The position numbers were made by a program, and so were the translations under genes. The notes beneath the pieces are model-generated. The model was given only the letters and a program-made list of their open reading frames with translations, was not told the origin of the DNA and searched no databases. Shown one piece after another: positions 1 to 3,255 of a stretch of 64,000 nt of DNA (positions are counted from its first letter, which is position 1; each line of letters starts with the position of its first letter). This DNA comes from Lawsonibacter sp. (lineage in GTDB: Bacteria; Bacillota; Clostridia; Oscillospirales; Oscillospiraceae): contig JAAWHL010000001.1 of assembly GCA_022795855.1 (NCBI GenBank), forward strand, positions 12,478 to 76,477. The letters run 5' to 3'.

Positions 1-825
1 GATATCAGCGCCGCCCCAGGCAGCATCAGTCAGGTGAAGGAATGTACCTTGGCACTGATGCAGCTGGCAAAGGGGGAGGGGATAACGGTTTTTGTCATCG
101 GCCACGTGAATAAGGAGGGGTCCATTGCCGGGCCCAAGGTGTTGGAACATATGGTGGACTGTGTGCTCTACTTTGAAGGAGAGCGGAACATGGCCTACCG
201 GATTCTTCGGGCTGCGAAAAACCGGTTTGGAGCAACCAATGAGATCGGCGTGTTTGAGATGGAGGACGGTGGCTTGGCTGAGGTGCCGAATCCCTCCGAG
301 GCGCTTCTGTCCGGGCGGCCCGTAGATACGCCCGGCACCTGTGTAACCTGCGTGATGGAGGGCATCAGACCTGTTTTGGCAGAGATTCAGGCGCTGGTAG
401 TACCGTCCAGTTTGGGAAATCCCCGCCGGGTGAGCAATGGATTTGACTTTAACCGCTCCATGCTCCTGCTGGCTGTGCTGGAGAAGCGAGGCGGACTGAT
501 ACTCGGAGGGTGCGACGCCTACCTGAACGTAATTGGGGGCCTGTCCTTGGATGAACCGGCTGCCGATTTGGCCGCTGTAATCTCTCTGGCCTCCAGTTTT
601 CGGGACAAGCCTCTCGCAGGGGATTTGGCGGCCATTGGAGAGGTGGGATTAACCGGTGAGCTGCGGGCGGTCAGTTCTTTGGGACAGCGGCTGAGTGAGG
701 TGAGGCGTCTGGGGTTTACCAAATGCCTTATTCCGAAACGAACGCAGGGGAAAATTTCAGTTCCGGACGGACTGGAACTGATTCGTGTCGGCAATATTCG
801 AGAGGCCATGGCAGCCTTGCTGTGA
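1..825 (+). CDS. radA: DNA repair protein RadA/Sms, C-terminal part (5' truncated by window edge)
   Basis: Frame open from base 1; motifs GHVNKEGSIAGPKVLEHMVD, KNRFG and the Lon-like C-terminal GEVGLTGELR. Confidence 0.95.
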   Translation, partial: DISAAPGSISQVKECTLALMQLAKGEGITVFVIGHVNKEGSIAGPKVLEHMVDCVLYFEGERNMAYRILRAAKNRFGATNEIGVFEMEDGGLAEVPNPSEALLSGRPVDTPGTCVTCVMEGIRPVLAEIQALVVPSSLGNPRRVSNGFDFNRSMLLLAVLEKRGGLILGGCDAYLNVIGGLSLDEPAADLAAVISLASSFRDKPLAGDLAAIGEVGLTGELRAVSSLGQRLSEVRRLGFTKCLIPKRTQGKISVPDGLELIRVGNIREAMAALL

Positions 826-1086
826 TGCTGGCGCCCGAATTTTGGGAATCTGATTTCCACGATTGTGAGACGGCCACAATACACGGTGGGAAATTTGCAC
901 AGGGGCCATTTTGCGGCAATTCCGGGGCGTGATGGCGCAGTCATTACTCCGTTGGGCGAATTGGGATTCAAGCCCCTTGGCCGCAGTGGGGGCACGTTTT
1001 TTGCTCCAGCTTACGCCCGGCAGGGGCCTATTTTAGAGGGACAGTCGGGCGGCATCCGCGAAGCGGACGGATGGGGAAGATTTAAG

Positions 1087-1123
1087 AAGGGCCTGGAACG
1101 GTGTGCCATTCCAGGCCCTTTTT
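1087..1123 (+). terminator. Intrinsic terminator-like hairpin downstream of radA
   Basis: AAGGGCCTGGAA / TTCCAGGCCCTT 12-bp stem followed by a T run. Confidence 0.6.
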
Positions 1124-1387
1124 CAGCGGCCGAAGACCGCTGTGCAATAGCCAAGCGCGAATGCGTTTTGGGCAATTAGAACGTCAAAAACGTTCGCCGC
1201 TTGTGATTTTGGTGAGCTAGCGAATGGCAGACGGGAAATGAAACGTAAGCCAGGAGGAAAACTCCCACGGGGCTGTTCCAAGGGGGGACACTGCCTCAAC
1301 AGGCGAAAAAAGATTTTCGGCGGCATACCGGAAGTCTGTTTGGAGTCTTTATTGGAAGAAAGAGTAGGTAAAGCCCGACAATGGAGG

Positions 1388-1416
1388 TTGAACATAGTCT
1401 GGCTTTGTGCTATACT
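1388..1416 (+). promoter_or_regulatory. Sigma-A-type promoter P1 with extended -10, no downstream CDS
   Basis: TTGAAC-17 bp-TATACT with TG at the extended -10 position. Confidence 0.6.
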
Positions 1417-1422
1417 GCAAGA

Positions 1423-1670
1423 CAGATGAGATTTGACAATGTTTGTGGGCCATCGCACATGAAGACGAAAAACTGCTCAGCAAGTACATGGAAACAAAGA
1501 GTAAAGGTGCTATGGCGATATGCCGGGGTGCGCCCGGCGGCCTTTCACAATTGTGGGCTGGCAGCAGTCAAGCTGGCGCAGAAAAGAGGCATTCGGTGTA
1601 GGTTCAATGTCAAAGAATTGCCAGAGAACATTTGTCAAGGGGACTTTCACCCAAAAGATGAAAGCCCCCT
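1423..1670 (+). ncRNA. Candidate rod-shaped small RNA (6S-like or antisense RNA)
   Basis: Downstream of P1; nested pairings found by eye (1433-43/1627-38, 1457-63/1603-10, 1472-81/1557-68, 1522-27/1533-38); ends at a hairpin. Confidence 0.3.
1636..1669 (+). repeat. Inverted-repeat copy A (internally palindromic)
   Basis: CAAGGGGACTTTCACCCAAAAGATGAAAGCCCC; 28 of 33 positions match the reverse complement of 2418-2450, including an 18-bp exact core. Confidence 0.9.
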
Positions 1671-1690
1671 ACAAATCGGGATTTATTACC

Positions 1691-1810
1691 TTAATACTGA
1701 TGAAAGAATATAAGTACAAGCAAAACACTAATTGCTCCCAGTACACTTACAACGATTACTTTCCAAAAATCATGCTTTTCTCTTTCAGTCATATCAATAT
1801 ACCATTTCAT
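1691..1810 (-). CDS. Unannotated 39-aa single-pass membrane peptide (MKWYIDMTEREKHDFWKVIVVSVLGAISVLLVLIFFHQY)
   Basis: Hand-translated; GGAGG RBS at 1821-1825, ATG, 19-residue hydrophobic stretch, TAA; own promoter upstream. Confidence 0.65.
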   Translation of the reverse strand: MKWYIDMTEREKHDFWKVIVVSVLGAISVLLVLIFFHQY

Positions 1811-1859
1811 GCTCTGTTAACCTCCATAACTCCCGATTTGTTGAACGAACCTATTCTAA

Positions 1860-1888
1860 AGTATAGCACAAAGTCAATCGGTGTTCAA
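1860..1888 (-). promoter_or_regulatory. Sigma-A-type promoter P2 for the 39-aa ORF, near-identical to P1
   Basis: TTGAAC-17 bp-TATACT on the minus strand; shares TTGAACA and CTTTGTGCTATACT with P1. Confidence 0.65.
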
Positions 1889-1895
1889 TCCCCAT

Positions 1896-2230
1896 TGCAG
1901 GGCGCCACCTAACCGGCAAGCAATGCCCCAGGATATACCCGGCGCAACTTGTTGGTGACCAATGTCCCCCAACCCCCCGGTGCAACAGCGCAGCTCCGCC
2001 CGATGCACAAGCCGCTGGTGGCGTCTGCAGGCCTGTCCATACTGGCAGGGAAGGGACGCCCGGCGGGCCTCCCTCGGAGAGCGCACGACTGCCGTAGGCA
2101 GTACCGCCGCCCGTTTGCGGGTGGTGAGTAAGTGCGCTCTTAGCAGAGGGCCGGCAAAGAGAGGGGAGCGCCCAGGTCATCCCTAGACGCTCCCGCTTCG
2201 GTTCCCTTCTGCCGGTCAATCACCGCCCCT
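1896..2230. other. GC-rich, hairpin-dense non-coding island (unidentified structured element)
   Basis: Multiple stems, e.g. 1896-1909/2017-2029, AGAGCGCAC/GTGCGCTCT enclosing two hairpins, CCGGCA..GGGAGCG/CGCTCCC..TGCCGG. Confidence 0.4.
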
Positions 2231-2417
2231 TCAGCCTGTGCCATTCTGCCACAAATGAACCGCAGTCAATGTAATGTAGTGGCTTGGTGAAACCACCCTT
2301 TATACATTACATCTCATATCTACTTCTTGACGTTCTTGACGATATCAGAGTGGATACAAACAGGTTGATTTTTCCAAAGCAGAACAAACCTGTTCTATTA
2401 TTGAGTATAAGGTAAAA

Positions 2418-2450
2418 AGGGATTTCATCTTTTGGGTGAATTCCCCCTTG
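2418..2450 (-). repeat. Inverted-repeat copy A'; also placed as terminator for the traX-like gene
   Basis: Reverse complement of copy A; on the minus strand the hairpin is followed by TTTTT, 40 bp after the traX-like stop. Confidence 0.85.
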
Positions 2451-2490
2451 AAAAATGCCCTCATAGAACGGTTTTGAGGCAAAGTTCCCG

Positions 2491-3255
2491 TCAGATGAAG
2501 CTCTGGCGAATCAGCCCCAGAATCAGCAGATGAGCGGGGTAAAAGATGTACCACAGATATTTGTCTCCGGGGAAGGACGTCCCTTTTTTGCCGTTATAGC
2601 AGAAGGTCAAGGCAACGCCCAGCAGAGGACCCAGGGCATTGACACCCCAGAGATGCAGCCAGCGGAGGGTAAACAGGCCCTCGCTCAGAATCATCCAGGT
2701 CAGCCCATATCGGGACAGGGGCATCAGCACCAGCCACAGAAGGAATTTCTTTGGGCGGGACCAGCTGTCTGTCAGGTAGAAAACCAGAATGAACAGCAGA
2801 TAACGGCCGTCTCCCTCGACGACGTTCAGAAGCTCGACGGCCGTCACCATGCCGGCGGCCAGAAGATAGCCGAGGCCGGCCCGTTTGCCGTTGCCCCACT
2901 CCAGCAGCTGCAAGGTCAGCAGGCCCAGCAGCAGGGTGAACAGGATATTTCCGTGAAATCCGAACAGGAGGAAATAGGGCCATTCCGCCAGGCAGGCGAA
3001 GACCAGTAGGCGCAGGGCATATTTTTTCCAATCCCTGGTGTGGCGGAAGCCGTTGGCAATGGAAAACAGGAAGATGGGGGCGGCGATGCGGCCCAGATAG
3101 TTGGTGCAGGACGTAAGGGCCGTAATCCAAGGAATGCTCTCCTGGCAGTTGGGATAGAGCAGGGTTTCCAGCGTCATGGAGAGGGGCCAGACGAAAGTCA
3201 GATGGTCCCAGAGCATGGACAGCAGGGCGATGGTTTTCAAGGCAAAAAAACTCAT
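2491..3255 (-). CDS. TraX-family integral membrane protein (putative acyltransferase), orphan
   Basis: LKTIALLSMLWDHL, GRIAAPIFLF..GF.HT, YNGKKG and FY.FYPAHL motifs. Confidence 0.8.
   Translation of the reverse strand: MSFFALKTIALLSMLWDHLTFVWPLSMTLETLLYPNCQESIPWITALTSCTNYLGRIAAPIFLFSIANGFRHTRDWKKYALRLLVFACLAEWPYFLLFGFHGNILFTLLLGLLTLQLLEWGNGKRAGLGYLLAAGMVTAVELLNVVEGDGRYLLFILVFYLTDSWSRPKKFLLWLVLMPLSRYGLTWMILSEGLFTLRWLHLWGVNALGPLLGVALTFCYNGKKGTSFPGDKYLWYIFYPAHLLILGLIRQSFI

Follow-up and report, generated by a model that had tools for sequence, protein, structure and literature searches.

The 39-aa peptide ORF on the minus strand of the window (the whole stretch of 64,000 nt analysed here) is, with a probability of about 0.8, a passenger of a 695-nt non-autonomous, site-specific mobile cassette, 2316..1622(-). 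The cassette lies between radA (1..825) and a TraX-like gene (3255..2491), in a 1.6-kb region that has no long ORF and is a mosaic of repeats. Its parts follow in the order TG, terminal repeat, module, promoter, 5'-UTR motif, one variable gene, 3' motif, hairpin, terminal repeat, TG. The initial annotation had suggested a type I toxin or a small regulatory membrane protein; the toxin-antitoxin-like features of the locus are better explained by the boundary motifs of the cassette together with the promoter of what is apparently a broken cassette next to it.

The cargo gene (1691..1810, minus; ATG 1810-1808, TAA 1693-1691, as read from the sequence) has the translation MKWYIDMTEREKHDFWKVIVVSVLGAISVLLVLIFFHQY. 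The N-terminal half of the peptide is charged, and residues 18-36 (VIVVSVLGAISVLLVLIFF), hydrophobic without interruption, form the single C-terminal transmembrane helix of this product of less than 60 aa. The Shine-Dalgarno GGAGG (1821..1825, minus) is situated 10 nt ahead of the ATG, in an ATGGAGG context similar to one present in other cassettes. The cassette promoter, of the sigma-A type (1860..1888, minus), consists of TTGAAC (1888-1883), a spacing of 17 nt and the TG-extended -10 box TGC-TATACT (1868-1860), and both its position and its sequence are kept in nearly all cassette copies. The ORF, the GGAGG, the promoter of its own and the transmembrane helix can all be read directly, as initially proposed. 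The GC content of the cargo is 35%, against roughly 57–60% for the genome. A mouse-gut metatranscriptome contig (1676-1835, depth 18, one mismatch) spans the ORF. The ORF is a genuine small membrane-protein gene, and the best explanation of the peptide is that of an accessory cargo, which would be expressed constitutively.

Structure and spread of the cassette

Twelve loci, from 12 species of the genus, share one architecture with a different gene each when read in the ORF orientation. Besides these, full elements of 0.74–3.7 kb were extracted from genomes (52) and from metagenome contigs (40). The boundary is sharp and identical in the twelve genus copies and in the 52 further ones, the consensus layout being TG followed by AGATGTAATGTATAAAGGGTGGTTTCACC at the left, and GGGGGATTTCATCTTTTGGGTGAAATCCCCC, then TTGACAAATGTTCTCT followed by TG, at the right. 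In the window, the left end (2286..2316, minus) starts with TG (2316-2315) and AGATGTAATGTATAAAGGGTGGTTTCACC, and forms an imperfect 31-nt inverted repeat with the right end; about 20 of the 31 positions are common to the left end and the reverse complement of the right end, the alignment being read directly. The left end also has a subterminal hairpin (2269..2312, minus) with perfect 10-nt arms, ATGTAATGTA and TACATTACAT. Its outer stem shows a compensating difference between subtypes, GTGTA/TACAC versus ATGTAATGTA/TACATTACAT.

At the other side, the cargo gene is followed by the right-end hairpin, an imperfect palindrome (1639..1669, with no strand assigned; GGGGGCTTTCATC-TTTTG-GGTGAAAGTCCCC), whose stem is retained in the window copy because the A:T pair of the consensus has become C:G. 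Together with the flanking GTTTATC and GACAAAT boxes it has an attC-like look. The right terminal repeat (1622..1652, minus) ends with CCTTGACAAATGTTCTC-TG, the TG being 1623-1622. In all copies, the right end carries a perfect TTGACA facing outward, 12 nt from the terminus (1633-1638 in the window, minus strand); if the ends were joined, it would be 17 nt from the TAATGT of the left end, a possible joint promoter directed into the module. An intron or IStron was considered and rejected: the ends are not GUGYG...AY, neither U nor omega-G fits the boundaries, and the insertions in recombinase genes are antisense.

The GC-rich module of about 400 nt (1916..2316, minus) is predicted to fold. In a search of 100 genomes of the genus, its copies were found to be 82–89% identical in about 20 species, often with several copies per genome, and usually paired with a copy of the 44-nt hairpin element (1624-1667 in the window) 250–1160 nt away. 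The copies differ by indels of 1 and 5 nt, which disrupt every frame; hence there is no conserved ORF, and a protein-coding function was rejected. RNAalifold yields −86 kcal/mol on the ORF strand versus −58 on the opposite strand. The consensus has 84 pairs, with double changes in 10 pairs and 27 cells, compared to 6.0 and 10.6 in shuffles; in the slid controls the pairing drops to 33–48%, and the covariation is modest. The hairpin at the 3' end of the module (helix 14; a palindrome at 1924..1946, minus, TGCGCCGGG-TATATC-CTGGGGCA) shows the compensatory variants GCGCC/GGCGC, GCACA/TGTGC and GCACC/GGTGC. The energies and the double changes thus provide moderate support for a folded nucleic acid, and the module probably folds, either as RNA on the ORF strand or as single-stranded DNA. 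The window has no Rfam 15 match at the gathering score, a scan of 800-2600 at E<=5 yielded no relevant family, and no tRNA or tmRNA genes were found. The omega-RNA of TnpB/IscB and the bridge RNA of IS110 are remote candidates, as no such gene is adjacent, and the module shares with the joined ends an 8-nt identity and a 7-nt complement only, which is near chance.

The TG is present on both sides in 51 of the 52 elements. The target is biased, with T at −3 (43/52), G at +2, A/T at +4, A at +9 and T at both +10 and +13. Its positions −9, −3, +4, +9 and +10 match the joined ends; the insertion site in the window fits this consensus poorly. In at least 13 independent loci the element interrupts a large serine recombinase gene at the motif (E/D)S-x-S-I-x-N^Q-K, the caret marking the junction. 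When the element is removed and one TG is kept, the flanks rejoin at S-I-x-N^Q-K, and several of them give open frames of 541–588 aa. One more insertion splits an XRE-family gene in frame. Judging by these junctions, the cassette is inserted either by recombination at specific sites or by transposition, 2 bp being exchanged or duplicated. In the mechanism we propose, the element would recombine at the TG dinucleotide into sites that look like its joined ends, with a preference for the S-I-x-N^Q-K codons in genes of large serine recombinases, and the enzyme would have to be supplied in trans.

No recombinase or transposase with these ends was seen in about 250 loci or in the genome of the window itself. 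Neither is there a recombinase inside the cassette copies, whose cargo ORFs are not transposases. The genome of the window has no larger element with these ends, the terminal-repeat scan yielding the known copies only. The joint of a circular or tandem form (right end, TG, left end) has no matches in metagenome contigs, versus more than 120 for the right end, and four DNA metagenomes yielded no empty-site allele of the window locus. Two long copies, of 3.7 and 2.6 kb, were rejected as autonomous ones, being cassettes with secondary insertions of IS91 and IS110, respectively: in the former (L127:3916-7604) an IS91-type pair, integrase and transposase, interrupts the 3' boundary motif, and in the latter (L246) an IS110-family transposase is situated between the module and the cargo.

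In one metagenome contig (L204:690-4496), three tyrosine recombinases in a row directly precede the cassette promoter, cargo and right end; about 100 nt including the promoter recur in inverted orientation at the two ends of this trio, which also has inner TTTCGGTATAA repeats. In another contig (L226:3385-6241), two tyrosine recombinases and a remnant are upstream of the same parts, and the right end abuts the target in a serine recombinase gene. Such a trio is found beside the cassette in two of about 250 loci, and the genome of the window has no close one. As a general mobiliser it was rejected, relatives being present in 6 of 201 genomes of the family with no cassette features nearby. We treat the trio as a lead only, because trios are rare in the family and otherwise not linked to cassettes.

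The 26-nt core of the right end has more than 119 exact matches in species-representative genomes, mostly from the mouse gut, and more than 120 in metagenome contigs; there were no matches in viral contigs. By their record titles, the genera include Oscillibacter, Colidextribacter, Pseudoflavonifractor, Lawsonibacter, Anaerotruncus, Acutalibacter, Neglectibacter and Ruthenibacterium, and the core is also present in Roseburia, Lachnoclostridium, Anaerotignum and a Christensenellales MAG. Copies of a 741-nt element that are 100% identical occupy different insertion sites in Colidextribacter, Oscillibacter and a Lachnospiraceae genome, and the identity of a Roseburia copy is 99.6%. Two species have different cargo at the same genomic site (L016 and L018). 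In one mouse metagenome, the depth of the left-end stretch is 6140 versus about 35 for the host region, that is, about 180 times higher.

The cargo identified by Pfam includes CAT, Flavodoxin_4, SnoaL_2, DUF4177, Peptidase_C39 and DUF6194. By our own reading of the sequences, further cargo genes presumably encode GNAT, NUDIX, MBL-fold, VanZ-like and VOC-like proteins, and there are other small membrane peptides of 56, 69, 84 and 104 aa. The chloramphenicol acetyltransferase (Pfam CAT, E = 1.5e-52) is carried by a cassette of 1207 nt inserted in a serine recombinase gene (L145).

The genome of the window has a second full cassette (C45:16674-15332), with the module 86% identical and a GC-rich, seemingly frame-disrupted cargo of about 0.8 kb, and a third copy divided over the contig ends of C59 and C21. 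In two short contigs (L078 and L107), the right end is seen with no module or left end, and adjoins a TnpV-like protein, an ECF-type sigma factor and a large membrane protein on the opposite strand.

Several known systems resemble this cassette in part. As in integrons, one short, often AT-rich and varied accessory gene precedes a conserved imperfect palindrome and follows a conserved promoter, and the cargo range likewise includes resistance-type enzymes and small unknown proteins. However, there is no adjacent IntI and there are no arrays, each unit having a single cargo; moreover, the promoter, the 400-nt module and both ends travel with each gene, and the unit inserts at many TG-flanked sites. 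We know of no classical integrons from Clostridia, the hosts here.

Tn4451, Tn4453 and Tn5397 are elements of about 6 kb moved by the large serine recombinases TnpX and TndX, with GA as the dinucleotide. The cassette has in common with Tn4451 the directly repeated dinucleotide at both ends, targets resembling the joined ends, and an outward −35-like hexamer at one end that may make a joint promoter; one copy here carries cat. It differs in having no recombinase, in its size of 0.7–1.6 kb, in TG instead of GA, and in the preference for serine recombinase genes as targets, and no circular form was found in metagenome contigs.

MITEs share the terminal inverted repeats, the 2-bp flanking repeat, the absence of a transposase and the many copies at varied sites, whereas the cassette has a promoter, an intact variable passenger gene and a long conserved structured module, and about 250 loci and the genome of the window yielded no insertion sequence with these ends that could be its parent. 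Finally, a resemblance to RIT (recombinase-in-trio) elements lies in the three consecutive tyrosine recombinases upstream of the cassette promoter, cargo and hairpin in the two metagenome contigs, in one of which the promoter segment makes the terminal inverted repeats of the trio element; however, this link is limited to these two loci, and other trios of the family have no cassette features.

A literature search yielded no description of such a family, and it appears to be undescribed. We tentatively propose, at somewhat less than even odds, a class of cargo-carrying non-autonomous cassettes of gut Clostridia, consisting of a structured module of about 400 nt, a promoter and one exchangeable gene, which home at TG into the catalytic-motif codons of serine recombinases, occur as identical copies across families, and constitute an integron-like shuttle that lacks an integrase. 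The unit is small and abundant and has one promoter-driven accessory gene, in one copy chloramphenicol acetyltransferase; it would pass between the Oscillospiraceae and Lachnospiraceae, and preferentially disrupt the recombinase genes of other mobile elements. If this is true, the cassettes would open a new route by which genes flow, and mobile elements come into conflict, in the gut microbiome, and they would offer a compact natural expression cassette for Clostridia, which are hard to engineer.

The inverted repeat around the cargo gene

The initial annotation reported an 11-nt perfect inverted repeat linking the 5' and 3' UTRs. The repeat is indeed present and forms in the predicted fold. 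Its 5' arm (1826..1841, minus; core ACAAATCGGGA at 1841-1831) matches the 5'-UTR boundary motif, and the 3' arm (1671..1686, minus; core TCCCGATTTGT at 1681-1671) matches the 3' boundary motif; with one mismatch allowed, the repeat extends to 16 nt (94% complementarity). By our own arithmetic, about 0.006 perfect 11-nt inverted repeats are expected by chance within about 230 nt. The duplex energy is −20.1 kcal/mol versus the mean of −13.1 in shuffles, none of 30 being as good. The stem is found in both the MFE and centroid folds of the predicted 232-nt transcript (z = −3.3), immediately 5' of a 13-bp hairpin. It adjoins the Shine-Dalgarno but does not sequester it, GGAGG being only weakly paired in the MFE fold and unpaired in the centroid fold; this is the one detail that differs from the initial annotation.

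Both motifs are conserved in 35 distinct cassettes: CGACAAATCGGAATT is the consensus after the promoter, and AATTCCRGTTTATCG or its variant GATTTGTAGGGGG, the latter in the window, stands before the end hairpin. These motifs, flanking the cargo, are partly complementary to each other, and in the arms of the window a double change has turned an A:T pair of the consensus into G:C. Only about five of the 35 cassettes pair strongly (−16 kcal/mol or better), and so an RNA-level role of the repeat is not general. In one cassette (L127), an unsplit palindrome, ACAAATCGCGATTTGT, is present in the 5' UTR. Further, the genome of the window has a cargo-less cassette (C51:37860-38040), composed of the module 3' end, a degenerate promoter, the joined motifs (CAATTCGACGAATCAAAATTTATCGGGGG), the hairpin and a degenerate right end. 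Given the conserved boundary motifs, the unsplit palindrome and the cargo-less copy, the repeat looks like a property of the cassette rather than of the peptide gene. Most likely, the boundary motifs would close an mRNA stem directly ahead of the end hairpin, and this stem would stabilise or insulate the cargo transcript instead of locking translation.

The main alternative, which we consider unlikely but the best of the competing ones, is that the repeat works as DNA, being a split palindromic recombination site that receives the cargo in the manner of attI/attC, and not an mRNA stem. The same unsplit palindrome and the "empty" cassette of promoter, joined motifs and hairpin are consistent with it, as are the GACAAAT box, present in the 5' motif and the right-end terminus and as its complement in the 3' motif, and the two contigs with the tyrosine recombinase trio directly upstream of the promoter, cargo and right end. 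However, variants of the promoter, the 5' UTR and the hairpin travel together with the cargo, while the left-end type varies (L118 versus L037), a pattern that fits homologous recombination within the module and not site-specific exchange at the repeat. Moreover, an integrase is adjacent in none of more than 240 other loci, and where the trio recombinases have relatives in the family, which is rare, these show no features of the cassette.

The convergent promoter and the type I toxin reading

The convergent promoter P1 (1388..1416, plus) resembles the cassette promoter and is followed by a 5'-UTR motif, ATTTGACAA; the 52 nt at 1365-1416(+) are 77% identical to 1911-1860(-). The segment downstream (1417..1621, plus), the body of the P1 RNA, is transcribed according to the contigs, has no convincing ORF, and is a putative remnant of an older cassette. 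A solo right-end hairpin (2419..2462, plus), 102 nt past the left end of the element, is 84% complementary to 1624-1667 and has the orientation expected for the interrupted older cassette. P1 is probably the promoter of this older, related cassette, into which the element would have been inserted in the inverted orientation. The nesting is something we infer, since the rejoined older cassette has no convincing ORF and no relatives. No convergent promoter is seen beyond the right end in the 52 genome-derived cassettes examined in detail, and none of the peptide-family loci examined has an arrangement like that in the window.

Contigs from mouse-gut metatranscriptomes identical to the window cover 1447-1685, 1447-1634, 1496-1789, 1602-1800 and 1820-2002, the first two having zero mismatches, and there are none over 800-1409. 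The contigs 1447-1685 and 1496-1789, which are strandless, reach the region of the hairpin and the 3' repeat arm. The signal is not a carry-over of DNA, because DNA runs cover the region evenly. In one run, 1447-1685 is covered and the ORF is not, which suggests that P1 yields an RNA of its own, with its end shortly beyond the hairpin of the element. The 3' tail of this RNA repeats the sequence of the mRNA 5' arm.

A type I module would comprise a membrane-damaging peptide, its mRNA kept inactive by the 5'-3' pairing, and the P1 RNA as the antitoxin pairing with the mRNA 3' end, the addiction stabilising the cassette. Typical of txpA/RatA and bsrG/SR4 are convergent pairs that reside on mobile DNA and overlap at the 3' ends. 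The peptide is small and has one transmembrane helix, the long-range stem is real, and the separate transcript 1447-1685 includes the hairpin together with the 3' repeat arm; another contig covers 1496-1789. Like hok/sok, aapA/isoA, txpA/RatA and bsrG/SR4, the locus combines a small hydrophobic peptide, mobile DNA, a 5'-3' stem and what appears to be a convergent transcript reaching the mRNA 3' end.

Still, we regard this reading as improbable. The P1 promoter resembles that of another cassette, and the arrangement is unique to this locus. The flanks of homologous peptide genes at ten other loci are unrelated, and these loci have no antisense gene in common, so that, of the convergent RNA initially claimed, the promoter at 1388-1416 and the transcribed segment 1447-1685 stand, but the antisense partner is not conserved with the peptide, as an antitoxin RNA gene would be with its toxin gene in homologous loci. 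The Shine-Dalgarno, unlike that in type I loci, is not sequestered, GGAGG being unpaired in the centroid fold, and the predicted fold is thus not of the kind that blocks ribosome binding until the mRNA is processed. The stem here is made by boundary motifs shared with cassettes carrying enzymes. The peptide is single-copy, with no paralogues, and its topology is reversed: to our knowledge, most type I toxins have the topology opposite to that of a charged N-terminus and a C-terminal helix. Finally, sister cassettes hold enzymes in the same slot; the gene is variable cargo, and elsewhere the same promoter and motifs accompany genes unrelated to it, which undermines the identification of a toxin. 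Judged from the sequence, no specific feature marks the peptide as a toxin, and the testable defining features of type I loci appear to be absent. Hence a textbook-looking type I toxin signature can stem from the anatomy of a mobile element.

At 1084-1123(+), about 260 nt downstream of radA, there is a clean hairpin resembling an intrinsic terminator (GGGCCTGGAA...TTCCAGGCCC, then TTTTT). It lies within the GC-rich stretch 980-1214, for which three other genomes of the genus have matches of 76–79%.

The peptide family

An exhaustive search of 1.84 billion representative proteins identified 16 small proteins of 35–69 aa, 49–85% identical to the peptide. The residues W3, F15, I19, G25 and L30 do not vary among them, and conservation extends to the charged N-terminal half. 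A match of 3331 aa (P0001) was compositional and was discarded. The initial annotation recognised no family and named conservation of the ORF as one of the points on which its proposal could fail; the ORF proved to be conserved, while Pfam, NCBIfam and PHROGs contain no family matching the peptide. The comparison thus defines what is, by its conservation, a real family of single-pass membrane proteins of about 40 aa.

The peptide gene is single-copy in its own genome, and it was not found in 60 related genomes. The contexts of the family members vary, several being in AT-rich Clostridia, and the flanks are unrelated: the similarity between the window and ten other loci is limited to the ORF, and no antisense gene is common to these ten. 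One close relative has the same promoter, with the module absent.

It is very improbable that the ORF is a chance open frame escaping translation. It is short, AT-rich and missing from the 60 related genomes, but the 16 relatives are conserved over the whole length, including the N-terminal half, which is not hydrophobic; GGAGG and a strong promoter are present, and RNA contigs span the ORF. Least probable of all is an invertible switch, flipping the promoter and the peptide gene between the 44-nt hairpin copies 1624-1667 and 2419-2462, which are inverted and 84% complementary, as the inner boundary of the conserved unit is 2316 and not 2419, the unit with a single hairpin is found at more than 90 other places, there is no invertase nearby, and DNA contigs from four metagenomes have the assembled orientation only, with no strand-changing joints.

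The peptide gene remains best described as cargo of the cassette. One contig, AT-rich and Clostridium-like, has a duplication of the final 30 nt of the peptide gene and the sequence downstream of it (L158:1591-1641 and 2592-2642), the duplicate lying about 1 kb upstream, behind a flavodoxin gene. The neighbours of the peptide gene there vary among contigs that are collinear elsewhere.
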